A stretch of DNA of 64,000 nt from Escherichia coli (GTDB lineage Bacteria; Pseudomonadota; Gammaproteobacteria; Enterobacterales; Enterobacteriaceae), in NCBI RefSeq assembly GCF_013122565.1, contig NZ_CP053258.1; one strand, given 5' to 3'. A model generated the notes under the pieces. The model searched no databases, was not told the DNA's origin, and saw only the letters and a list, made by a program, of their open reading frames with translations. Shown piece after piece: positions 5,844 to 59,346 of the stretch (the stretch's first letter is position 1; each line of letters starts with the position of its first letter). Made by a program: the position numbers and the translations under genes.

Positions 5844-7018
5844 GCGTAATCATCGTCGGTGGCGGCATGGCGGGCGCGACGCTGGCGCTGGCTATTTCCC
5901 GGTTAAGTTACGGGGCGCTGCCGGTACATTTGATTGAAGCGACCGCGCCAGAGTCACATGCTCATCCGGGCTTTGATGGACGAGCGATTGCGCTGGCGGC
6001 GGGTACCTGTCAGCAACTGGCGCGCATCGGCGTCTGGCAATCTCTGGCTGATTGCGCAACCGCCATCACCACCGTGCATGTCAGCGATCGTGGTCATGCT
6101 GGATTCGTCACCCTCGCCGCAGAAGATTACCAACTGGCGGCGCTGGGGCAGGTTGTTGAGTTGCACAATGTCGGGCAACGGCTGTTTGCATTGCTGCGCA
6201 AAGCACCTGGCGTAACGCTGCATTGCCCTGATCGCGTGGCTAACGTTGCCCGTACTCAGAGTCACGTTGAAGTGATGCTGGAGAGTGGCGAGACGCTGAC
6301 GGGCTGCGTGCTGGTAGCCGCTGATGGCACCCATTCAGCGTTAGCCACTGTGTGCGGCGTTGACTGGCAGCAGGAGCCTTACGAACAACTGGCCGTGATT
6401 GCCAACGTTGCGACTTCCGTTGCGCACGAAGGCCGCGCTTTTGAACGCTTTACGCAACATGGCCCGCTGGCGATGTTGCCGATGTCTGACGGACGCTGTT
6501 CGCTGGTCTGGTGTCATCCACTGGAACGGCGCGAAGAGGTGCTGTCGTGGAGTGACGAGAAGTTTTGCCGTGAGCTCCAGTCTGCCTTTGGCTGGCGACT
6601 GGGGCAAATTACCCACGCCGGTAAACGCAGTGCTTACCCGCTGGCATTAACCCGCGCCGCCAGACCGATTACCCATCGCACTGTGCTGGTGGGCAATGCG
6701 GCGCAAACCCTGCACCCCATCGCCGGGCAAGGGTTCAACCTCGGTATGCGAGATGTGATGAGCCTTGCGGAAACCCTGACTCAGGCGCAGGAGCGCGGAG
6801 AAGACATGGGTGATTACGGCGTATTGTGTCGTTATCAGCAGCGTCGACAGAGCGATCGCGAAGCAACCATTGGCGTCACGGACAGCCTTGTACATCTTTT
6901 TGCCAACCGTTGGACGCCGCTGGTTGTCGGGCGCAACATCGGGCTGATGACGATGGAATTATTTACCCCGGCACGCGATGTGCTGGCGCAGCGCACTCTC
7001 GGTTGGGTGGCGCGTTGA
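5840..7018 (+). CDS. ubiH: 2-octaprenyl-6-methoxyphenol hydroxylase (FAD-dependent monooxygenase)
   Basis: 392 aa, N-terminal FAD fingerprint IVGGGMAGATLA; start overlaps the pepP stop (ATGA). Confidence 0.95.
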   Translation: MSVIIVGGGMAGATLALAISRLSYGALPVHLIEATAPESHAHPGFDGRAIALAAGTCQQLARIGVWQSLADCATAITTVHVSDRGHAGFVTLAAEDYQLAALGQVVELHNVGQRLFALLRKAPGVTLHCPDRVANVARTQSHVEVMLESGETLTGCVLVAADGTHSALATVCGVDWQQEPYEQLAVIANVATSVAHEGRAFERFTQHGPLAMLPMSDGRCSLVWCHPLERREEVLSWSDEKFCRELQSAFGWRLGQITHAGKRSAYPLALTRAARPITHRTVLVGNAAQTLHPIAGQGFNLGMRDVMSLAETLTQAQERGEDMGDYGVLCRYQQRRQSDREATIGVTDSLVHLFANRWTPLVVGRNIGLMTMELFTPARDVLAQRTLGWVAR

Positions 7019-7040
7019 AGGCGGTTTTAAGGAATAAACA

Positions 7041-8243
7041 ATGCAAAGTGTTGATGTAGCCATTGTTGGCGGCGGCATGGTGGGGCTGGCGGTTGCCTGC
7101 GGCTTACAGGGGAGCGGCTTACGCGTTGCCGTACTGGAGCAGCGCGTACCGGAACCTCTGGCGGTAGATGCACCACCACAACTGCGCGTTTCGGCTATCA
7201 ATGCCGCCAGCGAAAAATTACTCACCCGTCTTGGCGTCTGGCAGGACATTCTCTCTCGTAGGGCCAGTTGCTATCACGGTATGGAAGTGTGGGACAAAGA
7301 CAGTTTTGGTCACATTTCGTTTGACGATCAAAGCATGGGCTATAACCATCTTGGGCATATCATTGAAAACTCAGTGATTCACTACGCGCTGTGGAACAAA
7401 GCGCAGCAGTCGTCAGATATCACTCTGTTGGCCCCCGCAGAATTACAGCAGGTCGCCTGGGGAGAAAATGAAACCTTCCTGACGTTGAAAGATGGCAGTA
7501 TGTTAACGGCGCGTCTGGTGATTGGCGCGGACGGCGCTAATTCCTGGTTGCGCAACAAAGCCGATATTCCGCTGACTTTCTGGGATTATCAGCATCACGC
7601 GCTGGTGGCGACCATTCGCACGGAAGAACCGCATGATGCGGTGGCGCGGCAGGTTTTCCATGGCGAAGGCATTCTGGCCTTTTTACCGCTTAGCGATCCG
7701 CATCTTTGCTCGATTGTCTGGTCACTGTCGCCAGAGGAAGCGCAGCGGATGCAGCAGGCAGGGGAAGACGAATTTAATCGCGCGTTAAATATCGCTTTTG
7801 ATAATCGCCTGGGCTTATGCAAGGTTGAGAGCGAGCGTCAGGTGTTCCCGCTAACGGGGCGTTATGCGCGCCAGTTTGCCGCGCACCGTCTGGCGCTGGT
7901 GGGCGACGCCGCGCATACCATTCACCCGCTGGCGGGGCAGGGGGTAAATCTCGGCTTTATGGATGCTGCAGAGCTGATTGCTGAACTGAAACGGTTGCAT
8001 CGTCAGGGTAAAGACATCGGGCAGTACATTTACCTGCGTCGCTATGAACGTAGCCGCAAGCACAGCGCGGCGCTGATGCTGGCTGGTATGCAGGGATTCC
8101 GCGATCTGTTTTCCGGTACCAATCCGGCGAAAAAACTGCTGCGTGATATTGGTCTGAAACTGGCCGACACGCTTCCTGGCGTTAAATCACAACTTATCCG
8201 CCAGGCAATGGGATTAAACGATTTGCCTGAATGGCTGCGTTAA
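7041..8243 (+). CDS. ubiI: 2-octaprenylphenol hydroxylase (FAD-dependent monooxygenase, VisC)
   Basis: 400 aa paralog of UbiH, IVGGGMVGLAVA fingerprint. Confidence 0.95.
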   Translation: MQSVDVAIVGGGMVGLAVACGLQGSGLRVAVLEQRVPEPLAVDAPPQLRVSAINAASEKLLTRLGVWQDILSRRASCYHGMEVWDKDSFGHISFDDQSMGYNHLGHIIENSVIHYALWNKAQQSSDITLLAPAELQQVAWGENETFLTLKDGSMLTARLVIGADGANSWLRNKADIPLTFWDYQHHALVATIRTEEPHDAVARQVFHGEGILAFLPLSDPHLCSIVWSLSPEEAQRMQQAGEDEFNRALNIAFDNRLGLCKVESERQVFPLTGRYARQFAAHRLALVGDAAHTIHPLAGQGVNLGFMDAAELIAELKRLHRQGKDIGQYIYLRRYERSRKHSAALMLAGMQGFRDLFSGTNPAKKLLRDIGLKLADTLPGVKSQLIRQAMGLNDLPEWLR

Positions 8244-8286
8244 AAATTTCTCTTCTGCTGTTTATTTGATACCCATCACACTTTCA

Positions 8287-8314
8287 TCTCCCGGTTTTTT
8301 CGCCGGGAGATTTT
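8287..8314 (+). terminator. rho-independent terminator after ubiI
   Basis: stem tctcccgg/ccgggaga followed by TTTT. Confidence 0.55.
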
Positions 8315-8689
8315 CCTCATTTGAAATAAACTAATTTCACCTCCGTTTTCGCATTATATTTTCTAATGTCACGAATTTTTGATTTAGTGTTTTTTGACAT
8401 TTTTTCAGCTCTTAATATTGCCTTATTCAAATTAACTCTCTCATCACATCATCTTTATATAGAAATTGGTGTGTTTTTTGGTTTTTTATTCCGTTGCGAT
8501 TTTGGCGTTTTTTAACCATAAGCTAATGTGATGATCAATTTTACCTTATGGTTAACAGTCTGTTTCGGTGGTAAGTTCAGGCAAAAGAGAACGATTGCGT
8601 TGGGGACCGGGAGTGGCTCCGATGCTGGGTTTCGTGGTGATAATTTCACCATGAAAAGTTGTCAGCCCCGCTTATTCAATGAGGACAAG

Positions 8690-9784
8690 ATGGCACAACA
8701 GACTCCTTTGTACGAACAACACACGCTTTGCGGCGCTCGCATGGTGGATTTCCACGGCTGGATGATGCCGCTGCATTACGGTTCGCAAATCGACGAACAT
8801 CATGCGGTACGTACCGATGCCGGAATGTTTGATGTGTCACATATGACCATCGTCGATCTTCGCGGCAGCCGCACCCGGGAGTTTCTGCGTTATCTGCTGG
8901 CGAACGATGTGGCGAAGCTCACCAAAAGCGGCAAAGCCCTTTACTCGGGGATGTTGAATGCCTCTGGCGGTGTGATAGATGATCTCATCGTCTACTACTT
9001 TACTGAAGATTTCTTCCGCCTCGTTGTTAACTCCGCCACCCGCGAAAAAGACCTCTCCTGGATTACCCAACACGCTGAACCTTTCGGCATCGAAATTACC
9101 GTTCGCGATGACCTTTCCATGATTGCCGTGCAAGGGCCGAATGCACAGGCAAAAGCTGCCACACTGTTTAATGACGCCCAGCGTCAGGCGGTGGAAGGGA
9201 TGAAACCGTTCTTTGGCGTGCAGGCGGGGGATCTGTTTATTGCCACCACTGGTTATACCGGTGAAGCGGGCTATGAAATTGCGCTGCCCAATGAAAAAGC
9301 GGCCGATTTCTGGCGCGCGCTGGTGGAAGCGGGCGTTAAGCCATGCGGCCTGGGCGCGCGTGACACGCTGCGTCTGGAAGCTGGCATGAATTTGTATAGT
9401 CAGGAGATGGACGAAACCATCTCTCCTTTAGCCGCCAACATGGGCTGGACCATCGCCTGGGAACCGGCAGATCGTGACTTTATCGGTCGTGAAGCTCTGG
9501 AAGCGCAGCGTGAACATGGCACAGAAAAACTGGTTGGTCTGGTGATGACCGAAAAAGGCGTGCTGCGTAATGAACTGCCGGTACGTTTTACCGATGCGCA
9601 GGGCAACCAGCATGAAGGCATTATCACCAGCGGGACTTTCTCCCCGACGCTGGGTTACAGCATTGCGCTGGCGCGCGTGCCGGAAGGTATTGGTGAAACA
9701 GCGATTGTGCAAATTCGCAACCGTGAAATGCCGGTTAAAGTGACGAAACCTGTTTTTGTGCGTAACGGCAAAGCCGTCGCGTGA
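8690..9784 (+). CDS. gcvT: glycine cleavage system aminomethyltransferase (T protein)
   Basis: 364 aa from [13 protein letters not shown] with RBS gagga; ORF-track extension to 8528 is upstream read-through. Confidence 0.95.
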
Positions 9785-20227: not shown

Positions 20228-21961
20228 GTGAAACAACAGATACAACTTCGTCGCCGTGAAGTCGATGAAACGGCAGACTTGCCCGCTGAATTGCCTCCCT
20301 TGCTGCGCCGTTTATACGCCAGCCGAGGAGTACGCAGTGCGCAAGAACTGGAACGCAGTGTTAAAGGTATGTTGCCCTGGCAGCAACTGAGCGGCGTCGA
20401 AAAGGCCGTTGAGATCCTTTACAACGCTTTTCGCGAAGGAACGCGGATTATTGTGGTCGGTGATTTCGACGCCGACGGTGCCACCAGCACGGCTCTAAGC
20501 GTGCTGGCGATGCGCTCGCTTGGTTGCAGCAATATCGACTACCTGGTTCCAAACCGTTTCGAAGACGGTTACGGCTTAAGCCCGGAAGTGGTCGATCAGG
20601 CCCATGCCCGTGGCGCGCAGTTAATTGTCACGGTGGATAACGGTATTTCCTCCCATGCAGGGGTTGAACACGCTCGTTCGTTGGGCATTCCGGTTATTGT
20701 TACCGATCACCATTTGCCGGGCGACACATTACCCGCGGCGGAAGCGATCATTAACCCTAACTTGCGCGACTGCAATTTCCCGTCGAAATCACTGGCAGGC
20801 GTGGGGGTGGCGTTTTATCTGATGCTGGCGCTGCGCACCTTTTTGCGCGATCAGGGCTGGTTTGATGAGCGCGGCATCGCAATTCCTAATCTGGCAGAAC
20901 TGCTGGATCTGGTCGCGCTGGGGACAGTGGCGGACGTCGTGCCGCTGGACGCTAATAATCGCATTCTGACCTGGCAGGGGATGAGTCGCATCCGTGCCGG
21001 AAAGTGCCGTCCGGGAATCAAAGCGCTGCTGGAAGTGGCGAACCGCGATGCGCAAAAACTCGCCGCCAGCGATTTAGGTTTTGCGCTGGGGCCACGTCTC
21101 AATGCTGCCGGGAGACTGGACGATATGTCCGTCGGTGTGGCGCTGTTGCTGTGCGACAACATCGGCGAAGCGCGCGTGCTGGCAAATGAACTCGATGCCC
21201 TAAACCAGACGCGAAAAGAGATCGAACAAGGAATGCAGGTTGAAGCCCTGACCCTGTGCGAGAAACTGGAGCGCAGCCGTGACACGCTACCCGGCGGGCT
21301 GGCAATGTATCACCCCGAATGGCATCAGGGCGTTGTCGGTATTCTGGCTTCGCGCATCAAAGAGCGTTTTCACCGTCCGGTTATCGCGTTTGCGCCAGCA
21401 GGTGACGGTACGCTGAAAGGTTCCGGTCGCTCCATTCAGGGGCTACATATGCGTGATGCGCTGGAGCGATTAGACACACTCTACCCCGGCATGATGCTCA
21501 AGTTTGGCGGTCATGCGATGGCGGCGGGTTTGTCGCTGGAAGAGGATAAATTCGAACTCTTTCAACAACGGTTTGGCGAGCTGGTTACTGAGTGGCTGGA
21601 CCCTTCGCTATTGCAAGGCGAAGTGGTGTCAGACGGTCCGTTAAGCCCGGCCGAAATGACCATGGAAGTGGCGCAGCTGCTGCGCGATGCTGGCCCGTGG
21701 GGGCAGATGTTCCCGGAGCCGCTGTTTGACGGTCATTTCCGTCTGCTGCAACAGCGGCTGGTGGGCGAACGTCATTTGAAAGTCATGGTCGAACCGGTCG
21801 GCGGCGGTCCGCTGCTGGATGGTATTGCTTTTAATGTCGATACCGCCCTCTGGCCGGATAACGGCGTGCGCGAAGTGCAACTGGCTTACAAGCTCGATAT
21901 CAACGAGTTTCGCGGCAACCGCAGCCTGCAAATTATCATCGACAATATCTGGCCAATTTAG
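20228..21961 (+). CDS. recJ: single-stranded-DNA-specific exonuclease RecJ
   Basis: 577 aa DHH-family phosphoesterase; GTG start at 20228. Confidence 0.95.
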   Translation: MKQQIQLRRREVDETADLPAELPPLLRRLYASRGVRSAQELERSVKGMLPWQQLSGVEKAVEILYNAFREGTRIIVVGDFDADGATSTALSVLAMRSLGCSNIDYLVPNRFEDGYGLSPEVVDQAHARGAQLIVTVDNGISSHAGVEHARSLGIPVIVTDHHLPGDTLPAAEAIINPNLRDCNFPSKSLAGVGVAFYLMLALRTFLRDQGWFDERGIAIPNLAELLDLVALGTVADVVPLDANNRILTWQGMSRIRAGKCRPGIKALLEVANRDAQKLAASDLGFALGPRLNAAGRLDDMSVGVALLLCDNIGEARVLANELDALNQTRKEIEQGMQVEALTLCEKLERSRDTLPGGLAMYHPEWHQGVVGILASRIKERFHRPVIAFAPAGDGTLKGSGRSIQGLHMRDALERLDTLYPGMMLKFGGHAMAAGLSLEEDKFELFQQRFGELVTEWLDPSLLQGEVVSDGPLSPAEMTMEVAQLLRDAGPWGQMFPEPLFDGHFRLLQQRLVGERHLKVMVEPVGGGPLLDGIAFNVDTALWPDNGVREVQLAYKLDINEFRGNRSLQIIIDNIWPI

Positions 21962-22051
21962 CGTCATCTTCTCTATAAAAAAGAGCGTGGATTGGGTACA
22001 ATCCCGCTCTTATCACCGCATTTTGACTAGCTCAATAAAAGAAATCAGACC

Positions 22052-23150
22052 ATGTTTGAAATTAATCCGGTAAATAATCGCATTCAGGACCTCACGGAAC
22101 GCTCCGACGTTCTTAGGGGGTATCTTTGACTACGACGCCAAGAAAGAGCGTCTGGAAGAAGTAAACGCCGAGCTGGAACAGCCGGATGTCTGGAACGAAC
22201 CCGAACGCGCACAGGCGCTGGGTAAAGAGCGTTCCTCCCTCGAAGCCGTTGTCGACACCCTCGACCAAATGAAGCAGGGGCTGGAAGATGTTTCTGGTCT
22301 GCTGGAACTGGCTGTAGAAGCTGACGACGAAGAAACCTTTAACGAAGCCGTTGCTGAACTCGACGCCCTGGAAGAAAAACTGGCGCAGCTTGAGTTCCGC
22401 CGTATGTTCTCTGGCGAATATGACAGCGCCGACTGCTACCTCGATATTCAGGCGGGGTCTGGCGGTACGGAAGCACAGGACTGGGCGAGCATGCTTGAGC
22501 GTATGTATCTGCGCTGGGCAGAATCGCGTGGTTTCAAAACTGAAATCATCGAAGAGTCGGAAGGTGAAGTGGCGGGTATTAAATCCGTGACGATCAAAAT
22601 CTCCGGCGATTACGCTTACGGCTGGCTGCGTACAGAAACTGGCGTTCACCGCCTGGTGCGTAAGAGCCCGTTTGACTCCGGCGGTCGTCGCCATACGTCG
22701 TTCAGCTCCGCGTTTGTTTACCCGGAAGTCGATGACGATATCGATATCGAAATCAACCCGGCGGATCTGCGCATTGACGTTTATCGCGCGTCCGGCGCGG
22801 GCGGTCAGCACGTTAACCGTACCGAATCTGCGGTGCGTATTACCCACATCCCGACCGGGATCGTGACCCAGTGCCAGAACGACCGTTCCCAGCACAAGAA
22901 CAAAGACCAGGCCATGAAGCAGATGAAAGCGAAGCTTTATGAACTGGAGATGCAGAAGAAAAATGCCGAGAAACAGGCGATGGAAGATAACAAATCCGAC
23001 ATCGGCTGGGGCAGCCAGATTCGTTCTTATGTCCTTGATGACTCCCGCATTAAAGATCTGCGCACCGGGGTAGAAACCCGCAACACGCAGGCCGTGCTGG
23101 ACGGCAGCCTGGATCAATTTATCGAAGCAAGTTTGAAAGCAGGGTTATGA
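22052..23150 (+). CDS. prfB: peptide chain release factor 2; needs a programmed +1 frameshift (join 22052..22126 and 22128..23150)
   Basis: 25-codon leader [25 protein letters not shown] ends at CUU followed by in-frame UGA; downstream +1 frame encodes RF2 with SPF and GGQ motifs. Confidence 0.9.
22113..22130 (+). promoter_or_regulatory. prfB +1 frameshift site (internal SD-like AGGGGG, then UAU CUU UGA C)
   Basis: sequence ttagggggtatctttgac matches the classical RF2 autoregulatory frameshift cassette. Confidence 0.9.
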
Positions 23151-23159
23151 GGAACCAAC

Positions 23160-24677
23160 ATGTCTGAACAACACGCACAGGGCGCTGACGCGGTAGTCGA
23201 TCTTAACAATGAACTGAAAACGCGTCGTGAGAAGCTGGCGAACCTGCGCGAGCAGGGGATTGCCTTCCCGAACGATTTCCGTCGCGATCATACCTCTGAC
23301 CAATTGCACGCAGAATTCGACGGTAAAGAGAACGAAGAACTGGAAGCGTTGAACATCGAAGTCGCCGTTGCTGGCCGCATGATGACCCGCCGTATTATGG
23401 GTAAAGCGTCTTTCGTTACCCTGCAGGATGTGGGTGGCCGCATTCAGCTGTACGTTGCCCGTGACGATCTGCCGGAAGGCGTTTACAACGAGCAGTTCAA
23501 AAAATGGGACCTCGGCGACATCCTCGGCGCGAAAGGTAAACTGTTCAAAACCAAAACCGGCGAACTGTCTATCCACTGTACCGAGCTGCGTCTACTGACC
23601 AAAGCACTGCGTCCGCTGCCGGATAAATTCCACGGCTTGCAGGATCAGGAAGCGCGCTATCGTCAGCGTTATCTGGATCTCATCTCTAACGATGAATCCC
23701 GTAACACCTTTAAAGTGCGCTCGCAGATCCTCTCTGGTATTCGCCAGTTCATGGTGAACCGCGGCTTTATGGAAGTTGAAACGCCGATGATGCAGGTGAT
23801 CCCTGGCGGTGCCGCTGCGCGTCCGTTTATCACCCACCATAACGCGCTGGATCTCGACATGTACCTGCGTATCGCGCCGGAACTGTACCTCAAGCGTCTG
23901 GTGGTCGGTGGCTTCGAGCGTGTATTCGAAATCAACCGTAACTTCCGTAACGAAGGTATCTCCGTACGTCATAACCCAGAGTTCACCATGATGGAACTCT
24001 ATATGGCTTACGCAGATTACAAAGATCTGATTGAGCTGACCGAATCGCTGTTCCGTACTCTGGCACAGGATATTCTCGGTAAGACGGAAGTGACCTACGG
24101 CGACGTGACGCTGGACTTCGGTAAACCGTTCGAAAAACTAACCATGCGTGAAGCGATCAAGAAATATCGCCCGGAAACCGACATGGCGGATCTGGACAAC
24201 TTCGACTCTGCGAAAGCGATTGCTGAATCTATCGGTATCCACGTTGAGAAGAGCTGGGGTCTGGGCCGTATCGTTACCGAGATCTTCGAAGAAGTGGCAG
24301 AAGCACATCTGATTCAGCCGACCTTCATTACTGAATATCCGGCAGAAGTTTCTCCGTTGGCGCGTCGTAACGACGTTAACCCGGAAATCACAGACCGCTT
24401 TGAGTTCTTCATTGGTGGTCGTGAAATCGGTAACGGCTTTAGCGAGCTGAATGACGCGGAAGATCAGGCGCAGCGCTTCCTGGATCAGGTTGCCGCGAAA
24501 GATGCAGGTGACGACGAAGCGATGTTCTACGATGAAGATTACGTCACCGCACTGGAACATGGCTTACCGCCGACAGCAGGTCTGGGGATTGGCATCGACC
24601 GTATGGTAATGCTGTTCACCAACAGCCATACCATCCGCGACGTTATTCTGTTCCCGGCGATGCGTCCGGTGAAATAA
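23160..24677 (+). CDS. lysS: lysyl-tRNA synthetase (constitutive)
   Basis: 505 aa class II aaRS with N-terminal OB anticodon-binding domain; 9 nt after the prfB stop. Confidence 0.95.
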
Positions 24678-24695
24678 GCATTACGTTATGCTCAC

Positions 24696-24724
24696 AACCC
24701 CGGCAAATGTCGGGGTTTTTTATT
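24696..24724 (+). terminator. rho-independent terminator after lysS
   Basis: hairpin aaccccggcaaatgtcggggtt followed by a T-run; overlaps the idi stop codon. Confidence 0.65.
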
Positions 24725-25268
24725 TAAGCTGGGTAAATGCAGATAATCGTATTCTGGCTTCGCGATTTGTCGCCTGCATCACCATCCACGGACTGAACGC
24801 CCACGGCGTGGCATCAATACCGCGTAATACATCAGCTAAATCACACCATTGATAATCCATCACTTCATCATCGTTGATCTGTAACGCACTGGTGGTGCGT
24901 GCGGCAAATACCGGACACACTTCATTTTCCACAATGCCATTCGGATCGGTGGCGCGATAGCGAAAGTCAGGATAGATAGATTCAGGAGGCGTAATTTCCA
25001 CGCCAAGCTCATAACGGCAACGGCGGATCACCGCGTCTTCGTTGCTTTCTCCCAGTTGTGGGTGCCCACAAACCGAGTTAGTCCACACGCCAGGCCATGC
25101 TTTTTTGCTCAGTGCGCGGCGGGTAACTAATAATTGTCCTTTGGCATTAAACAGCCAACTGGAGAACGCGAGATGTAAGCGGGTGTCTGCCGTGTGTGCG
25201 GCATACTTTTCCAGCGTACCCGTGGGAACTCCCTGTGCATTCAATAAAATGACGTGTTCCGTTTGCAT
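24720..25268 (-). CDS. idi: isopentenyl-diphosphate delta-isomerase (type 1, Nudix-like)
   Basis: 182 aa [25 protein letters not shown]... Confidence 0.9.
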
Positions 25269-25517
25269 AATTTCTCACATGTAATTCTGATCACTCATCA
25301 TTATAGATAATTGAAGAGTGAAATGATTAACCAAGTGAGCGTTTATCGACAACCGCCCGTTTTGAGCGGATGTCGACAGGTAAAAACCATTTAAAAAAGT
25401 AGCATCATATATTTGAAGCGACTTTCAATGGCCATTGCAACACAGTCAGAAATGACAGGAATAGAGAGAGTAAAAAGCAACAGCAGACTGAATATAGCGC
25501 GCATTAAAAAATTCATA

Positions 25518-26966
25518 TTATTCTCCATGCTCATTTTTCTTCAGCTTGCGCATCAGAAGCCACATACGTACTGTCCTGACTTTTAAATCTTTATCAGAGA
25601 CGGATTCCTTCACCAGGTCAGCATGATGCTGGTAGCCATTAAAGAAGACATTCAGCACAACGGCGCTAAGGGTTGCGAGCATAATGCCGCTATGCAGCAG
25701 CGGTTGCAGTACGGCCGGTAACTTAGAAAAGAAATCGTGAGAGAGCGTTGGAGTCATGCCAACGCCGAGACTGATCGCCACAATATAGAGGTTGTAACGG
25801 TTGGTGGTGTAGTTACAGCGCGACAGAATTCGAATCCCTGTCGCCAGTACCATGCCGAACATCACCAGCCCAGCGCCGCCCAGCACAAATTGCGGAATGG
25901 AGGCTACCAGCACCGCCATTTTTGGCACCATGCCAAACAGGATTAATATAATTCCCGAAGAAATACACACCCAGCGGCTATGAACGCGCGTCACGCTAAC
26001 CAGGCCAACGTTTTGAGAAAATGACGTATGGGGGAAGCTGTTAAACGTTCCGCCTATCATTGTCCCTACGCCATCGACACGCAGCCCGCGAATAATATCG
26101 TGTGAAGAGAGTTTACGACCAACTATTTCACCCAGTGCCAGGAACATCCCCATCGACTCGATAAACACGATGATTAACACGGCAGTCATGGTCAGAATGG
26201 AAACGGGATCAAAAATCGGCATACCAAACGACATCGGCGTAACAATCGCAAACCATGAAGCATCATGTAGCCCGGATAAATTGACTTCATTCATCATCCA
26301 CGAAAGTAAAAAGCCAAATACAATCCCCAGTAATACGGCGACGTTGGACATAAATCCTTTCGCATAGCGAGTAATGAGCAAGATAAAAATTAAGACGGCA
26401 AAGGAGATACCTAAATAAACGGGATTACCATATTGCGGATTCCCTTTACCTCCGGCGGCCCAGTCAATACCCACCTGAATGATGCTAAGCCCGATAGAAG
26501 TAATAACCACACCGGTAACCAGTGGCGGAAATAAAGGCATCAAGCGACCGATAAGTGGCGCTAATAATGTGGTGATAAAACCCGCGGCGATAGTGGCACC
26601 AAATATCCCCAGCAGGCCGATATCCGGGTTCATCCCAATGGCTATCATTGGTGTTACAGCAGCAAAGGTCACCGACATAATCACCGGCAGGCGGATCCCC
26701 ATAAAGCGGCCGATACCGATACATTGCAATAATGTGACGATCCCGCAGCAAAAGAGATCCGAGCTAATGAGCATCGCAATAGCATCTTTTGAGAGGCCCA
26801 GTCGGTCACCAATCATAAGAGGAACAGCGACTGCACCTGCGTACATGACAAGGACGTGTTGCAGACCGAGTATGATCAGCTTTCCTGGTGATAATATGCG
26901 GTCAACCTCATCAGTTGGGCGGTCTTGCCCAGAAGATGAGGGAAGTTGGGAATCTATGGCGCTCAT
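25518..26966 (-). CDS. uacT: uric acid permease (NCS2/NAT family)
   Basis: 482 aa from MSAIDSQLPSSSGQ; polytopic NAT-family transporter; ORF-track 43-codon extension trimmed. Confidence 0.9.
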   Translation of the reverse strand: MSAIDSQLPSSSGQDRPTDEVDRILSPGKLIILGLQHVLVMYAGAVAVPLMIGDRLGLSKDAIAMLISSDLFCCGIVTLLQCIGIGRFMGIRLPVIMSVTFAAVTPMIAIGMNPDIGLLGIFGATIAAGFITTLLAPLIGRLMPLFPPLVTGVVITSIGLSIIQVGIDWAAGGKGNPQYGNPVYLGISFAVLIFILLITRYAKGFMSNVAVLLGIVFGFLLSWMMNEVNLSGLHDASWFAIVTPMSFGMPIFDPVSILTMTAVLIIVFIESMGMFLALGEIVGRKLSSHDIIRGLRVDGVGTMIGGTFNSFPHTSFSQNVGLVSVTRVHSRWVCISSGIILILFGMVPKMAVLVASIPQFVLGGAGLVMFGMVLATGIRILSRCNYTTNRYNLYIVAISLGVGMTPTLSHDFFSKLPAVLQPLLHSGIMLATLSAVVLNVFFNGYQHHADLVKESVSDKDLKVRTVRMWLLMRKLKKNEHGE

Positions 26967-27401
26967 CAGTGTTTCTCCTTTCGCCCGCCAGAGTAAAAAG
27001 CAACCGTTTACGTTAATGAAACTGTCTAAACACATGCTCGTGGAGTGCCAGTTTTTGCGAGGAAGGGGAGTTAGAGACAGGAATTGCGGAGGCAATCACA
27101 TAATCGTGCTTAAACCACGAAAATGACAAGAGAACCTGACAATGGAATTATCTGTAATTTTCTCATATTGATATTTCATTAATCATTCTGGCATGTCGCA
27201 CTCTCGCATTTAATCGTTTTTATCTGGATAGCGCTCTTTTGATCGGCAATGTTGAAATAATGAAAGCGGCATAGATTGAGGGGCAATAATTTGAACTCAG
27301 TCGCAAAATTATAATTAAAACGGTCATGCTACCTAATATATGCCCGTTTATTGCATCGCGAAATTTGAGAAGACATAACTCATTAAATGAAAGGGATGCA
27401 A

Positions 27402-29321
27402 ATGAATAAGTTTATCGCTGCTGAAGCTGCGGAATGTATAGGCTGTCATGCTTGTGAAATTGCCTGTGCGGTGGCACACAATCAAGAAAACTGGCCGCTG
27501 AGTCACAGTGACTTTCGACCACGTATCCACGTTGTAGGGAAAGGCCAGGCTGCGAATCCGGTGGCCTGCCATCACTGCAACAATGCCCCTTGCGTTACGG
27601 CTTGTCCGGTTAATGCTCTGACTTTCCAGTCCGATAGCGTACAACTGGACGAGCAAAAATGTATTGGTTGTAAAAGATGCGCAATCGCTTGCCCCTTTGG
27701 CGTCGTTGAGATGGTCGATACGATTGCGCAGAAATGCGACCTTTGTAACCAGCGCAGTTCCGGCACGCAAGCCTGTATTGAAGTTTGCCCAACACAGGCG
27801 TTACGACTGATGGACGATAAAGGGTTACAGCAGATAAAGGTGGCCCGCCAGCGCAAAACGGCAGCAGGAAAAGCGTCATCAGACGCTCAGCCATCTCGCA
27901 GTGCAGCGTTGCTCCCCGTTAACTCGCGTAAAGGCGCAGATAAAATTTCAGCAAGTGAACGGAAAAACCACTTTGGCGAAATCTATTGCGGGCTGGATCC
28001 ACAACAAGCGACTTATGAGAGTGACCGCTGTGTTTATTGTGCCGAAAAAGCTAACTGCAACTGGCATTGCCCGCTGCATAACGCTATTCCGGATTACATC
28101 CGTCTGGTACAGGAGGGAAAGATTATTGAAGCGGCAGAACTTTGCCACCAGACCAGTTCCTTACCAGAAATCTGCGGCAGGGTATGTCCACAGGACCGTC
28201 TTTGTGAAGGTGCATGTACTTTGAAAGATCACTCTGGCGCAGTCTCTATCGGTAATCTGGAACGCTACATCACCGATACCGCGCTGGCGATGGGCTGGCG
28301 TCCCGATGTCAGCAAAGTTGTTCCCCGTATCGAGAAAGTGGCGGTGATTGGCGCTGGGCCTGCAGGGTTAGGGTGTGCTGATATTCTGGCGCGCGCAGGA
28401 GTTCAGGTCGATGTCTTTGATCGCCATCCAGAAATTGGCGGTATGCTGACTTTTGGCATTCCTCCTTTCAAACTCGATAAAACGGTATTAAGCCAGCGGC
28501 GAGAGATATTCACCGCAATGGGAATCGACTTTCATCTTAACTGTGAAATTGGCCGCGATATTACCTTTAGCGATTTAACTTCTGAATATGATGCAGTTTT
28601 CATCGGCGTGGGGACTTACGGGATGATGCGAGCAGATCTGCCACATGAAGATGCGCCCGGTGTCATTCAGGCTCTACCGTTCCTGACTGCCCATACCCGC
28701 CAGCTCATGGGATTGCCGGAGTCTAAAGAGTATCCGCTGACGGACGTGGAAGGTAAGCGAGTCGTGGTATTGGGCGGTGGCGATACGACAATGGATTGTT
28801 TGCGGACTTCCATTCGCCTCAATGCTGCCAGCGTGACCTGCGCGTATCGTCGTGATGAAGTCAGTATGCCGGGCTCGCGCAAAGAGGTGGTCAATGCGCG
28901 CGAGGAAGGTGTCGAGTTTCAATTCAATGTTCAGCCGCAATATATCGCTTGTGACGAAGATGGGCGTTTAACTGCGGTGGGCCTGATTCGTACCGCCATG
29001 GGTGAGCCGGGGCCGGATGGTCGCCGTCGTCCTCGTCCGGTAGCGGGTTCAGAGTTTGAATTGCCCGCCGATGTTCTCATTATGGCCTTTGGTTTCCAGG
29101 CGCATGCCATGCCGTGGTTGCAGGGCAGCGGAATTAAACTCGATAAATGGGGCCTGATTCAAACCGGCGACGTTGGGTATTTACCTACCCAGACGCATCT
29201 GAAAAAAGTCTTTGCTGGTGGTGATGCAGTTCATGGCGCGGATCTGGTTGTCACTGCAATGGCCGCAGGAAGGCAGGCGGCGCGCGATATGTTAACTCTG
29301 TTTGATACGAAGGCATCGTGA
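27402..29321 (+). CDS. ygfT: Fe-S flavoprotein: N-terminal 2x[4Fe-4S] ferredoxin domain fused to a GltD-like NAD(P)H/FAD oxidoreductase
   Basis: four CxxCxxCxxxCP clusters, then dinucleotide-binding motifs [14 protein letters not shown] and [13 protein letters not shown]; RBS aaggga 5 nt before the ATG at 27402. Confidence 0.9.
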
Positions 29322-29809
29322 TGAAATCGTTAATTATCGTTAATCCGGCTGACTGTATTGGCTGCCGTACTTGTGAAGTAGCCTGTGTGGTCGCTCACCC
29401 TTCAGAACAGGAGTTGAATGCCGATGTCTTTTTACCCCGGCTGAAGGTACAGCGATTGGACAGCATCAGTGCGCCGGTGATGTGCCATCAGTGTGAAAAC
29501 GCCCCTTGTGTTGGCGCTTGCCCCGTGGGGGCGCTGACGATGGGCGAGCAGGTGGTGCAGACCAATTCTGCCCGTTGTATTGGCTGTCAGAGTTGCGTCA
29601 GTGCGTGCCCGTTTGGAATGATCACCATTCAGTCGTTGCCGGGGGATACCCGGCAACAAATCGTGAAATGCGATCTCTGTGAACAGCGGGAAGAGGGGCC
29701 AGCCTGCGTTGAATCTTGCCCAACACAGGCGCTGCAGTTGCTTACTGAAAGAGAACTCAGGCGAGTCCGCCAGCAGCGTATTGTTGCCAGCGGTGAGAAT
29801 CCTCTGTGA
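29321..29809 (+). CDS. ygfS: 4Fe-4S ferredoxin-like electron-transfer protein
   Basis: 162 aa with four Cys clusters ([43 protein letters not shown]...CVESCP); start overlaps the ygfT stop. Confidence 0.85.
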
Positions 29810-29844
29810 AAGAAATCTCCGCGCTGAAAGGCGCGGAGAATCTA

Positions 29845-31212
29845 TTAGATTGCCCAACCACCCGCGTAAAATGCGACCAGTGCGGCAGTAATGATCACCG
29901 TACCAATATTCAGCTTTTGCCATTCGCGTGCAAAGACGCGGCCTACGACCAGTGTCACAAAGCCCAGCATAATACCGGTAACGATATTACAAGTCAGAAC
30001 GATGAACACGGCACACACCAGGCCAGCCATAGCGTCAATAAAATCATTGAAATCCAGCTTCGAGACGTTACTTAACATCAGCAAACCCACGTACATCAGA
30101 GCGGGTGCAGTGGCGTAACCAGGGATCAAAAATGACAGCGGTGATAAGAACAGAATCAGCAGGAATAACGCCCCCACTACGGTTGCGGTTAACCCTGTTT
30201 TACCCCCGGCGGCGGTTCCTGCCGCTGATTCGATATAAACCGCTGCGGGCGCTGCGCCCACCAGACCGGAGAATATTGAACTTACTGAGTCACTGGTCAG
30301 GGCTTTGCCGCCGTTGATGATCTGGTTGTCTTTATCCAACAAATTCGCCTGACCGGCGACAGCACGGATGGTGCCAGTAGCGTCGAACACTGCGGTCATC
30401 ACCAATGCCAGTACACTCGGAAGTACAGTTGGCTGGAGTGCGCCCATAATATCGAGGCTGAAAATCAGAGACTTACCATCTTCGCCAGTCAGGCTTGGCA
30501 TCGCCACCAGACCGTGGTATTTCACCGCTGGGTCAAAGATTAAGCCGATGATCGAAATTGCAATAATCACCAACAAGATCCCGCCGGGTACGCGACACTT
30601 CTCCAGACCGAAGATGACCGCCAGCCCCAGCAAGCTCATCATCACCGGGAAGGAGGTAAACGCACCGAGCGCCACTGGCAAGCCTTCAATCGGGTTTTTG
30701 ATAACCATACCCACACCGTTAGCAGCAATCAGCAGCAGAAACAGCCCGATACCGATACCTGTACCGTGAGCGATACCCATCGGCAAATTACGTAAGATCC
30801 AGGTACGCACACCGGTTACGGAAATGGCGGTGAAGATGACGCCCATCAGAAAGACCGCGCCCAGTGCGACAGGAACGCTAATTTGTTGCCCGAGTACCAG
30901 ACTGAATGCGGTAAACGCCGTCAGGGAAATCGCGCAACCAATCGCCATTGGCAAATTGGCCCATAACCCCATCAGCAACGAGCCGAAGCCCGCGACCAGA
31001 CAGGTGGCAACAAACACAGCTGCGGGAGGAAAACCTGCTTTGCCCAGCATTCCCGGAACAACGATAACGGAATAAACCATGGCCAGAAAGGTCGTTAAGC
31101 CAGCCAGTACTTCCTGACGAACGGTACTGCCACGAGCGGTAATTTTAAAATAATTATCCAGCGCGCCCTGTGGCTTTGGTGCGTCCGGTGTTTGTAGGAT
31201 GTCTCCAGACAT
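29845..31212 (-). CDS. ghxQ: guanine/hypoxanthine permease (NCS2 AzgA-like)
   Basis: 455 aa polytopic transporter [34 protein letters not shown]. Confidence 0.9.
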
Positions 31213-42273: not shown

Positions 42274-42594
42274 AACCCTCTCCTTAGCTTATACAGATAT
42301 CATTGAGTGACCGGTGTTGAGAAATCCGGTGGTTTAGGGGGATAGAGCAACAATCGCACCACTCTTGCCAGGTTTGGCGGGAAATATAAAAAAATGTGAG
42401 GCGGCTCGAAACTTAAGGGCTTTTTGTGAATGAACTCACAGGTGCCAAATGAGAATTAAAATCACTCCTGAAAATTATTATTGCCAGCCCATTTATCACT
42501 TTTTCTCTTTTCTCAAAATTAGTGATTCCTTATCATTATGATAAAGAGTGCTGGAGGGGTTAAATATTTGAACGCAATCGTTTAACTACGTTTT

Positions 42595-43275: not shown

Positions 43276-44046
43276 GTGAAAAGTATAGTTGACCCATCGG
43301 CATTATTCATTGATTTAGGTGCACAGAAACGTCCCACTGTGATTTCTGTTGTTGGTGCTGGGGGGAAAACCAGCTTGCTTTTTTGGCTGGCAGAACGGCT
43401 CCAGACTAGCGGCAGGCGTGTGTTAATCACGACGACGACACATATGTTTATGCCAACGTCACACTGGCCCGTGGTTTTCTGTCGTGATCCCGCCATGCTT
43501 CCTCATGCGTCTCTTACATCCCCCATTTCATTTTGTTTTCACAGCTGGAAAGCGAACCAGGGAAAAGTGCAGGGATTTACGCCAGAAGCGATTGATGCAC
43601 TGGTGCAACGACCAGAGTGTGACGTAATTCTCATTGAAGCAGATGGCTCGCGTGGAATGCCGTTAAAAGCCCCTGATGAGCACGAACCTTGCATACCCAA
43701 AAGCAGTTGCTGCGTGATTGCTGTGATGGGAGGACATATTTTGGGCGCGAAAGTGAGCACAGAAAATGTCCATCGCTGGTCGCAGTTTGCTGATATTACC
43801 GGGTTAACACCTGATGCAACCTTGCAACTGAGCGATCTCGTTGCGCTGGTTCGCCACCCTCAGGGGGCGTTTAAAAACGTACCGCAAGGTTGTCGGCGAG
43901 TCTGGTTCATTAACCGTTTTTCTCAATGTGAGAATGCGATTGCGCAAAGCGAGCTCCTTCAACCGCTGCAACAACACGACGTAGAGGCAATCTGGCTGGG
44001 CGATATACAAGAACATCCTGCAATCGCGCGCAGATTTGTGAATTAG
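43276..44046 (+). CDS. yqeC: YqeC-family accessory protein of selenium-dependent molybdenum hydroxylases (P-loop)
   Basis: 256 aa with Walker A-like VVGAGGKTS; paired with yqeB. Confidence 0.85.
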   Translation: MKSIVDPSALFIDLGAQKRPTVISVVGAGGKTSLLFWLAERLQTSGRRVLITTTTHMFMPTSHWPVVFCRDPAMLPHASLTSPISFCFHSWKANQGKVQGFTPEAIDALVQRPECDVILIEADGSRGMPLKAPDEHEPCIPKSSCCVIAVMGGHILGAKVSTENVHRWSQFADITGLTPDATLQLSDLVALVRHPQGAFKNVPQGCRRVWFINRFSQCENAIAQSELLQPLQQHDVEAIWLGDIQEHPAIARRFVN

Positions 44047-50878: not shown

Positions 50879-52069
50879 TTATTTCACGCGTTCTTGCGCT
50901 TCTTTCAGCAGTTGCTCGAGCAGTGCACCTGGTTTGGCGTATTTACGGGACAGGATCATCGCGGCGATGATATAAGGCTTCCAGCTGGCTTCTTTGTAGG
51001 TAGCGATACGGTATTTTTCGAATACGCCTTCAGTCACTTCACCTTCTTTGCAGGATACGCCGCTGATATCAGCTGGCAGGCAGTGCATGTACAGGGCTTC
51101 GCCATCACGGGTCAGTTCCATCATCTCTTCAGTACAATGCCAGTCTTTGTGTTGCGCGTTCTGTGCCAGACACTGTTTTTCCAGTGCTTTTAAGCCTTCG
51201 TGGTCGTTTGCACGCAGCAATTCAGTACGCTCTTCCATCACTTTGTAAGGTGCCCATGACTTCGGATAAACGATGTCTGCGTCTTTGAAGGCTTCTTCCA
51301 TGCTGGTGACCTGACGGAAGCTACCACCGGAGGCTTTAGCATTGTTTTTCGCCACTTCAACCACATCCGGGATCAGGTCGTAGCCTTCCGGATGGGCCAG
51401 GGTGACATCCATACCGAAGCGAGTCATCAGACCGATGATGCCTTGTGGTACAGAGAGCGGTTTGCCATAGCTTGGGGAGTAGGCCCAGGTCATGGCGATT
51501 TTTTTACCTTTCAGGTTTTCCAGTGAACCAAAGTGTTCACGTAACCATGCCAGGTCAGCCATTGACTGAGTCGGGTGGTCAATATCACATTGCAGGTTCA
51601 CTAAAGCCGGACGTTGCGGCAGAACACCCTGCTTGTAACCGTCATCAAGTGCAGCGCCAACTTCACGCATATAGGCGTTGCCTGCGCCCAGATACATATC
51701 GTCGCGAATACCAATAGCGTCGGCGCAGAAGGAGATCATATTGGCGGTTTCACGCACGGTTTCGCCGTGAGCGATTTGTGATTTGCCTTCGTCGAGATCT
51801 TGCTGTGCAAGGCCGAGCAGGTTAAGCGCGGAAGCATAAGAGAAGCGGGTACGAGTGGAGTTGTCGCGGAATACGGAAATACCTAATCCACTGTTAAAGA
51901 CTTTGGTTGAGATGTTTTCAGCACGCAGTGCTTTTAATGCTGCGGCAACGTCCAGTACTTGTTTCAGTTCATCTGGCGTCTGTTCCCACGTTAACAAAAA
52001 ATCTTTCTCGTGAAGGTGAGAGGTCAGCGAATTGATATCCTTAATCAGCTCATTAACAGTTTTCATCAT
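50879..52069 (-). CDS. ygeW: carbamoyltransferase-family protein (OTC/ATC fold, substrate unresolved)
   Basis: 396 aa with STRTR carbamoyl-phosphate-binding motif and HCLP motif. Confidence 0.9.
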   Translation of the reverse strand: MMKTVNELIKDINSLTSHLHEKDFLLTWEQTPDELKQVLDVAAALKALRAENISTKVFNSGLGISVFRDNSTRTRFSYASALNLLGLAQQDLDEGKSQIAHGETVRETANMISFCADAIGIRDDMYLGAGNAYMREVGAALDDGYKQGVLPQRPALVNLQCDIDHPTQSMADLAWLREHFGSLENLKGKKIAMTWAYSPSYGKPLSVPQGIIGLMTRFGMDVTLAHPEGYDLIPDVVEVAKNNAKASGGSFRQVTSMEEAFKDADIVYPKSWAPYKVMEERTELLRANDHEGLKALEKQCLAQNAQHKDWHCTEEMMELTRDGEALYMHCLPADISGVSCKEGEVTEGVFEKYRIATYKEASWKPYIIAAMILSRKYAKPGALLEQLLKEAQERVK

Positions 52070-52544
52070 AAAGTCCCGGTAGTGGAATGACAGGCAAAGT
52101 GGTTTATTTCACTGTGACTTGCCAAAGTGATTGGTGTTTTCACAGCTATACTTGGGACTAACAATAAGTGTGCCAGAATTATCCACGGGGCTGCAAAAGA
52201 CTAATTTGACGGATAATGTGTGGGGTTGATCACAAATTGATGCCAGCTTCCGGTTGTTTGTAAAATACGAAAACGTTTGGCTTTTTTTATCGCGTTATTT
52301 ATTTGCTGCTAAGTATCAGAAATAAGATAAAGGGGCAGGCTATCCCTCGTCAGTTTGATAAACTCACCGCCGTAATTCTCATATTGATATAGAAATGTGA
52401 TATCTCTTCCATAATTTCATTAGAAAGTGATAAAAATCTTATGTTTTTATCAAAGCCAATTTCGCCTGAGTTAATATCATCATGATCTGTGAACCATCAA
52501 CGTCTTCAATGATCGACTTTTAAGTAAGTCTGGAAGGTAAAGCT

Positions 52545-59272: not shown

Positions 59273-59346
59273 GCGGGCGTAGTTCAATGGTAGAACGAGA
59301 GCTTCCCAAGCTCTATACGAGGGTTCGATTCCCTTCGCCCGCTCCA
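59273..59346 (+). tRNA. glyU: tRNA-Gly (anticodon CCC)
   Basis: 74 nt cloverleaf GCGGGCGUAGUUCAAUGGUAGAACGAGAGCUUCCCAAGCUCUAUACGAGGGUUCGAUUCCCUUCGCCCGCUCCA; encoded CCA. Confidence 0.95.

Follow-up and report, generated by a model that had tools for sequence, protein, structure and literature searches.

In a 64 000-nucleotide stretch of Escherichia coli DNA (hereafter, the window), the urate/H+ symporter gene uacT (ygfU) is transcribed divergently from ygfT (uacF) and ygfS, which encode, respectively, an NAD(P)H-type flavoprotein fused to a ferredoxin-like domain and a separate four-cluster ferredoxin. On balance, we favour the view that uacT and ygfT-ygfS form one co-regulated divergent unit in which YgfT and YgfS serve as an electron-input module that leads from FdhF (formate dehydrogenase H, FDH-H) to NAD(P)+. 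UacT would import urate. FdhF would dock on one of the two HycB-like four-cluster modules, YgfS or the N-terminal domain of YgfT, and electrons would pass through the [4Fe-4S] chain into the GltD-like domain of YgfT, with its own two clusters and FAD. From the flavin they would, most likely, be delivered to NAD(P)+. The resulting NAD(P)H would be used by XdhD-YgfM for the conversion of urate to 2,8-dioxopurine and by YgfK for reduction of the ring, so that the unit as a whole would provide the pathway with the four electrons it needs, by formate:NAD(P)+ oxidoreductase activity. In this scheme the contact between FdhF and YgfS or YgfT, the direction of electron flow and NAD(P)+ as the acceptor are what we infer.

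The locus and its role in formate-dependent anaerobic urate degradation have been known since 2019, with extensions in 2022–2025, and the RefSeq product name of YgfT is 'formate-dependent uric acid utilization protein'. As related in later papers, anaerobic urate use by E. coli requires formate, depends on FDH-H and involves aegA, ygfT and ygeV; electrons were proposed to pass from formate dehydrogenase to NADP+ or else straight to uric acid (Iwadate & Kato, 2019, J Bacteriol 201:e00573-18). The protein is called UacF and noted to adjoin UacT by Li et al. (2025), and an operon 'uacF-ygfS' beside uacT figures in the literature. Characterization of the pathway showed NADH-dependent reduction of urate to 2,8-dioxopurine by XdhD-YgfM and reduction of the ring by YgfK, with SsnA, HyuA, YgeW, YgeY and YgeX completing the breakdown to pyruvate and ammonia (Li et al., 2025). 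The enzymatic steps that lead from urate to pyruvate have now been assigned; the entry of reducing power and the formate dependence have so far been described at the genetic level, and it is this locus that would encode the missing link between formate and the urate pathway. When gut Enterobacteria degrade urate anaerobically, the urate levels of the host are affected, and probiotics for gout are being engineered with this capacity.

An initial annotation of the window, made from the sequence alone, had paired the urate permease with YgfT and YgfS and proposed that they supply electrons for the reduction of urate or of an intermediate further down the pathway. That observation adds nothing beyond what has been published; the additions made here are the linkage of fdhF to the locus and a map of regulatory motifs. 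The gene names, the outer coordinates, the divergent orientation and the 435-bp AT-rich spacer given there are exact by RefSeq mapping. The three genes are as follows.

25518..26966, minus strand: uacT (ygfU), urate/H+ symporter, 482 amino acids, ATG start (RefSeq name 'urate/proton symporter UacT')
27402..29321, plus strand: ygfT (uacF), 639 amino acids (RefSeq mapping and translation)
29321..29809, plus strand: ygfS, 162 amino acids, HycB-like four-cluster ferredoxin (RefSeq mapping and domain homology)

Domains and gene neighbourhoods of YgfT and YgfS

Residues 176–631 of YgfT align end to end with GltD, the small subunit of NADPH-dependent glutamate synthase (6s6s_G, E=2.7e-108), and the glutamate-synthase-beta-like module of the initial annotation holds, with its motifs intact. 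The same part also matches NfnB (4ylf_B, E=7e-86; 5jca_L, E=3e-85) and dihydropyrimidine dehydrogenase (DPD). In the alignment with the Azospirillum brasilense GltD, the FAD-binding GxGxxG, the NADPH-binding GxGxxx, the YRR..MPGS motif and both iron–sulfur (Fe-S) cysteine motifs are kept. YgfT thus has the same module of two [4Fe-4S] clusters, FAD and an NAD(P)H site that is found in GltD (6s6s_G, 2vdc_G), NfnB, the N-terminal half of DPD (1gt8) and YgfK, the last of which has the Fer4_20 and Pyr_redox_2 domains in common with it. Unlike these proteins, YgfT comes without GltB, without the dihydroorotate dehydrogenase (DHODH)-like FMN domain of DPD and YgfK and without NfnA, and has a HycB-like domain instead.

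That N-terminal domain had been described as a di-cluster ferredoxin, which has to be revised. Residues ~1–140 contain four cysteine motifs (C12/15/18/22, C56/59/64/68, C87/90/93/97 and C112/115/125/129), with 16 cysteines in all, and residues 1–104 match the four-cluster subunit HycB of the formate hydrogenlyase complex (FHL; 7z0s_B, E=1e-30); it is therefore a four-cluster domain. A linker rich in Ala, Ser and Lys follows at ~143–190. YgfS, correctly recognized at the outset as a four-cluster ferredoxin, likewise has 16 cysteines in four motifs (C12/15/18/22, C55/58/63/67, C86/89/92/96 and C117/120/129/133), matches HycB (7z0s_B, E=8e-32) and shares 46% identity with residues 1–157 of YgfT, of whose N-terminal domain it is a paralog. 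In total, YgfT is predicted to carry FAD and six [4Fe-4S] clusters, and YgfS four clusters. YgfT, YgfS, AegA, HydN, YsaA, HycB and HyfA have previously been grouped as paralogs (Pinske, 2018).

YgfT of the window is orthologous to YgfT (UacF) of E. coli K-12 and is the same gene; the cluster representative P0001, which bears the RefSeq product name, is 99% identical to it at 100% coverage and has the same length (639 amino acids). It belongs to the formate-dependent uric acid utilization protein family, in which a HycB/HydN-like domain is fused to the Fer4_20 and Pyr_redox_2 module, and orthologs in other Enterobacterales (63–93% identity) bear the same RefSeq name. A search of representatives of 1.84 billion proteins returned just one further full-length YgfT-type cluster (P0121, AegA-like), the remaining matches being GltD-like modules with unrelated N-terminal parts, so this architecture is a narrow one. 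UacT, a permease of the NCS2/NAT family, matches Xan_ur_permease (PF00860, E=1.8e-123) over residues 72–452 of the long open reading frame (ORF), and its locus is 99.6% identical to that of E. coli genomes annotating 'urate/proton symporter UacT'. Urate transport by E. coli YgfU has been characterized experimentally (Papakostas & Frillingos, 2012, as cited in a later paper).

Two other assignments were considered for YgfT and rejected. Some database names make it a glutamate synthase, but the catalytic partner is absent: the domain scan of YgfT detected neither GltB nor an FMN-binding DHODH-like domain, and no gltB-like gene was present in any neighbourhood examined. A bifurcating transhydrogenase of the NfnAB type would accord with the NfnB homology, but none of the 15 neighbourhoods contains a gene for an NfnA-like protein ([2Fe-2S] plus FAD).

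The neighbourhoods of full-length YgfT orthologs (58–93% identity) in 14 other Enterobacterales genomes were compared with the window, with a systematic tblastn of their genes. Of the 12 loci that a search of genome contigs with YgfT yielded, several were partial or matched GltD alone, and neighbourhoods were also taken from exact-sequence look-ups of orthologs. An NCS2 permease gene is divergent from ygfT in 11 of the 15 genomes (the window, two more Escherichia species, two Citrobacter, Trabulsiella, Atlantibacter, Klebsiella aerogenes, Salmonella diarizonae, Cedecea and Arsenophonus), an arrangement that is therefore not due to chance. In Mixta, Erwinia, Pantoea and Buttiauxella this position is taken by a fused xdh gene. 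Except in Arsenophonus, ygfT, with or without ygfS, lies inside or beside the pathway cluster (ssnA and ygfK, xdh, or ygeV with ygeWXY) in the genomes examined. The gene ygfS directly follows ygfT in 12 of the 15 and is cleanly missing from Citrobacter sp. R56, Atlantibacter subterranea and Arsenophonus apicola (L004 11911–11975, L022 11944–12000 and L018 11950–12518, respectively); these lineages retain the paralogous domain within YgfT.

In five of the 15 genomes, representing five genera, fdhF is physically linked to the ygfT locus. K. aerogenes, S. enterica diarizonae and Cedecea carry it directly downstream of the permease gene, with 715 codons, an in-frame UGA at codon 140 (Sec140) and products that are 86–93% identical to E. 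coli FdhF. The fdhF of Erwinia oleae and Pantoea sp. has 716 codons and Cys140 and comes directly after ygfS (~61% identical; 1045 bits to PDB 1aa6); its start overlaps the ygfS stop by 4–8 bp in Pantoea, and a 14-bp gap separates the two genes in Erwinia. This linkage in five genera suggests a complex of FDH-H with YgfT-YgfS. A similar pairing recurs in the structures 8oh5_C and 9bov_A, where a GltD-like module is fused to an FDH-like molybdopterin domain in one chain: YgfT matches residues ~103–493 of these chains and Erwinia FdhF matches residues ~685–997. In contrast to these fusions, ygfT and fdhF encode the two parts separately; the genes are adjacent in the five other genera and have no linkage in E. 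coli.

The comparison brought out several further peculiarities. Arsenophonus apicola has the permease–ygfT pair alone, with no other pathway gene within 10 kb, and its spacer holds two perfect palindromes of the kind described below. Outside Escherichia, Citrobacter, Trabulsiella and Atlantibacter, a fused Mo-pterin and FAD xdh-like gene (~990–1073 amino acids) with a separate [2Fe-2S] subunit (L014 1881–5596; L021 1320–5006; L015, L016 and L019 ~5900–9650) replaces the E. coli split into XdhD (Fe-S and Mo) and YgfM (FAD); it is just ~29% identical to E. coli XdhA. Buttiauxella sp. A111 (L012 10001–12399) has a YgfT homolog of 58% identity in the ygfT position of its urate cluster, followed by a ygfS-like gene. 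Similar Buttiauxella proteins are named 'AegA' in RefSeq, so the AegA/YgfT split in the databases does not track genomic context.

Divergent promoters of uacT and ygfT

The spacer between uacT and ygfT (26967–27401) is 435 bp long and has a GC content of 39%, against 50.4% for the whole window. Apart from the ygfT site found by chromatin immunoprecipitation sequencing (ChIP-seq), its architecture is a prediction, drawn from motif matches and their conservation; the elements are as follows.

27035..27050, minus strand: predicted sigma-54 (-24/-12) element for uacT, TGGCACTCCACGAGCA, 68 nt upstream of the ATG (cross-genus conservation)
27085..27100, no strand assigned: CRP-like site on the uacT side, TGCGGAGGCAATCACA, with two mismatches to TGTGA-N6-TCACA (conserved; putative function)
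27160..27174, no strand assigned: central palindrome, TTCTCATATTGATAT, consensus TTCTCA-N3-TGAGAA, candidate YgeV upstream activator site (recurrence and conservation)
27290..27305, no strand assigned: CRP-like site on the ygfT side, TTTGAACTCAGTCGCA (conserved across genera; putative function)
27339..27355, plus strand: sigma-54 site for ygfT, TATGCCCGTTTATTGCA (published ChIP-seq site OS32)

Taken together, these elements would give a symmetrical arrangement in which the upstream activator site is flanked on each side by a CRP site and then by a sigma-54 promoter, with uacT at one end and ygfT-ygfS at the other. Both divergent promoters probably share the central YgeV site, and each would have its own CRP-like site.

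Sigma-54 sites have been found by ChIP at xdhA, ygeW, ygfK and ygfT, the last of them (OS32, motif score 4.5) being assigned to ygfT at a position 36 nt upstream of the gene. Its -24 element is non-canonical, with TG in place of GG, whereas the canonical -12 TTGCA is invariant in all 15 spacers. The uacT promoter also appears to be of the sigma-54 type. Its element reads TGGCAC-N5-GAGCA, and the form TGGCAY-N5-nnGCW, directed toward the divergent gene and with the GG and GC invariant, occurs in 15 of 15 spacers, even those in which that gene is another permease or xdh. From the information content of the motif, a chance match is estimated in well under 1% of spacers of such length. The plain sigma-54 consensus is not enriched over the window (22 matches against 27 expected); support for the uacT site comes only from its orientation and cross-genus conservation. 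The centre of the uacT-side CRP-like site lies 44 bp upstream of the uacT -24 GG, and this site has the perfect consensus in Cedecea; the ygfT-side site is centred 44 bp upstream of the ygfT -24, and its right half is TCACA in several genera.

Copies of the palindrome are present at further promoters of the cluster. The identical 15-mer is present in the ygeW-ygeV spacer (52376–52390), a related copy lies upstream of ygfK (42530–42544), and a perfect copy at 43920–43934, ~160 nt upstream of yqeB, falls within the 3' end of yqeC. With up to two mismatches allowed, the 64 kb contain five matches, three of which are within the ~1.2 kb of cluster intergenic DNA that bears sigma-54 promoters; no copy was detected upstream of xdhA at up to three mismatches. 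In nine other genera the palindrome is found in the spacer upstream of ygfT at two mismatches or fewer, and other genera also have it between ygeW and ygeV and where yqeC meets yqeB, often free of mismatches. We consider TTCTCA-N3-TGAGAA a candidate binding site for YgeV (IsrR); our literature search found no published YgeV binding site. The initial annotation had called for mapping of regulator sites shared across the spacer, and the palindrome at 27160–27174, predicted as such a site, stands between the two promoters.

The copy at the end of yqeC has no mismatches in E. coli, K. aerogenes (L014 18475–18489), S. diarizonae and Cedecea (L020 15352–15366, L021 17521–17535). Its position near yqeB suggests an internal YgeV-dependent promoter for this selenium/molybdenum cofactor gene. 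The ygeW-ygeV spacer (52069–52546) and the region upstream of ygfK (42274–42594) have an architecture like that of the uacT–ygfT spacer: on the ygeW side, a sigma-54 site (52160–52175, minus strand), a CRP-like site (52219–52234) and the palindrome at 52376–52390 with two weaker copies; on the ygfK side, a perfect CRP consensus (42425–42440) and palindromes within 42510–42544. The ygeV-ygeW and ygfK units thus share the palindrome and CRP-like sites with the uacT–ygfT spacer. Within this regulon, ygfT differs in its TG-for-GG -24 element and uacT in that its promoter is a predicted one.

Expression data are in line with common control of the unit. Urate strongly induces ygfT and ygfK (Liu et al.); ygfT belongs to the YgeV iModulon in the PRECISE-1K study, which cites lower ygfT expression in a ygeV mutant, and both ygfT and uacT are in the YgeV iModulon gene list of a later study. 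Repression by glucose and a Crp site in the urate cluster have also been reported. The predicted layout of sigma-54, YgeV and CRP sites fits the urate induction, the YgeV dependence and the glucose repression, and the mapped sites would provide specific targets for YgeV and CRP. A urate phenotype has been published, as later papers relate, and the iModulon holds both genes; lack of a phenotype and of co-regulation with uacT was what would have spoken against the link that the initial annotation drew.

Source and acceptor of the electrons

In the FHL structure (PDB 7z0s and 7z0t), FdhF docks on HycB, is loosely bound and is thought to have further partners. YgfS and the N-terminal domain of YgfT share the four cysteine motifs of HycB (E ~1e-30). 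In FHL the electrons go onward to HycF, HycG and the [NiFe] hydrogenase, whereas the YgfT chain ends in the GltD-like FAD/NAD(P) module and, unlike in FHL, hydrogenase genes are not found near ygfT-ygfS. The linkage of fdhF, together with these HycB-type domains, supports a route through docked FdhF; the published genetics and the synteny both point this way, and the electron source is probably formate via FdhF and not NAD(P)H. Of the electron-input module proposed at the outset, then, the redox role in reductive urate catabolism stands, while the input of electrons from NAD(P)H gives way to formate as the likelier source. The 'unusual purine chemistry' that was noted is real but not novel, given that the reductive pathway has already been characterized in E. 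coli.

As for the acceptor, XdhD-YgfM and YgfK have their own FAD/NAD(P)H entry sites and are active with NADH in vitro, so a converter of formate to NAD(P)H would suffice to account for the formate dependence. The NADPH motifs and the YRR..MPGS of GltD that are kept in YgfT count in favour of NAD(P) as the acceptor. Several points weigh against the proposed path from FdhF to NAD(P)+ within a co-regulated unit. In a two-hybrid study, the paralog AegA bound HycB, HydN and YsaA, and not FdhF. Neither fdhF nor a remnant of it is present in the E. coli window, the uacT-idi gap included, and the module can do without ygfS, given its loss from three lineages. Published assays of the pathway were run with NADH, and the YgfT motif looks to be of the NADPH type. 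The literature search turned up no biochemical assay of YgfT or YgfS, no cluster count and no role for ygfS, and the predicted sigma-54 site of uacT has no reported peak in the published sigma-54 ChIP-seq study.

Formate electrons might also bypass free NAD(P)H and go from FdhF through the Fe-S chain of YgfS and YgfT directly to the Fe-S centres of XdhD and/or YgfK, with the flavin site of YgfT serving as an alternative or balancing entry or exit. This direct wiring is possible, though we hold it only tentatively. The relevant potentials are ~-430 mV for formate, ~-360 mV for the reduction of urate and -320 mV for NADH, and by these textbook values formate is the better reductant for urate than NADH. 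Two HycB-like modules would offer two possible docking surfaces, as in the wires of FHL and of the hydrogen-dependent CO2 reductase (HDCR), and the xdh genes themselves are the divergent neighbours of ygfT-ygfS in Erwiniaceae and Buttiauxella; delivery 'directly to uric acid' was left possible by the original authors, in the account of later papers. Set against this are the separate FAD/NAD(P)H entry of XdhD-YgfM and YgfK and their activity with NADH, as well as the dispensability of ygfS in three lineages. A related idea, which we judge unlikely, is that YgfT-YgfS and FDH-H constitute a soluble complex of their own, a third FDH-H partner system besides FHL-1 and FHL-2, which would do more than make NAD(P)H and work by direct wiring or by NfnB-like confurcation or bifurcation that couples formate and NAD(P)H. 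If true, it would drive the low-potential step from urate to 2,8-dioxopurine, and Erwiniaceae would possess a complex with a dedicated Cys-type FdhF.

The opposite direction of flow, as originally envisaged, would have YgfT oxidize NAD(P)H and its Fe-S chain, with YgfS, act as a low-potential donor to urate or an intermediate, perhaps by bifurcation or confurcation of the NfnB kind. GltD-like modules of glutamate synthase and DPD do run from NAD(P)H to Fe-S clusters, and YgfT is a clear homolog of the bifurcating NfnB. Ferredoxin use has been proposed for the Clostridioides difficile enzymes of the same urate pathway. Even so, we find this direction quite improbable, as it leaves the dependence on formate and FDH-H and the linkage of fdhF in five genera unexplained, lacks an NfnA-like partner in any neighbourhood examined and has to contend with E. 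coli pathway enzymes that accept NADH directly. That ygfT-ygfS merely adjoins uacT and serves some other process, such as selenium metabolism or general anaerobic redox, is hardly credible. The paralog AegA has no linkage to purine genes in E. coli and for a long time had no phenotype, and selenium-cofactor genes are also present at the locus, but synteny with the pathway cluster is conserved across the 15 genomes examined (the Arsenophonus pair stands alone), regulatory motifs are common to ygeW, ygfK and yqeB, and urate induction, YgeV dependence and a mutant phenotype have been published, the last as reported at second hand.

Other features of the window

Coordinates were derived from the RefSeq annotation of the nearest genome (window = L001 + 4999). 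The window is chromosomal E. coli DNA: the segment 25000–30200 has matches in 5415 of the 5426 complete genomes of the species, with a top match of 99.6%. For uacT, the ORF list has a 525-amino-acid frame with a TTG start, which is longer and differs from the annotated start. The ygfT stop and the ygfS ATG overlap by one base (GTGATGA), so the two genes form a single operon. The genes 3' of the locus are ghxQ, guaD, xanQ, xdhD, ygfM, ssnA, ygfK, mocA, yqeC, yqeB, arcC, hyuA, ygeY, dpaL (ygeX), ygeW, ygeV and xdhCBA; from ghxQ to xdhCBA they make up the entire anaerobic purine/urate cluster.

One further element, from a consensus scan, lies between the convergent ygfS and ghxQ.

29816..29839, no strand assigned: GC-rich hairpin, terminator-like on the minus strand

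The scan for sigma-70 promoters and terminators gave a signal no higher than the shuffled expectation, and an Rfam scan of 24500–30500 found nothing near any gathering score. The AT-rich idi-uacT gap (25269–25517, 249 bp) contains the annotated tiny ORFs yqfG (41 amino acids) and yqfH (23 amino acids). The window also includes prfB (~22052–23150), a gene known for its programmed +1 frameshift, because of which the ORF list splits it in two (21819–22073 and 22269–23150). A tRNA-Gly(CCC) gene at 59273–59346 comes after actS. Beyond this tRNA gene, the closest RefSeq genome has genes for a recombinase, AIPR and DUF6538, which look like an island integrated there in that genome.

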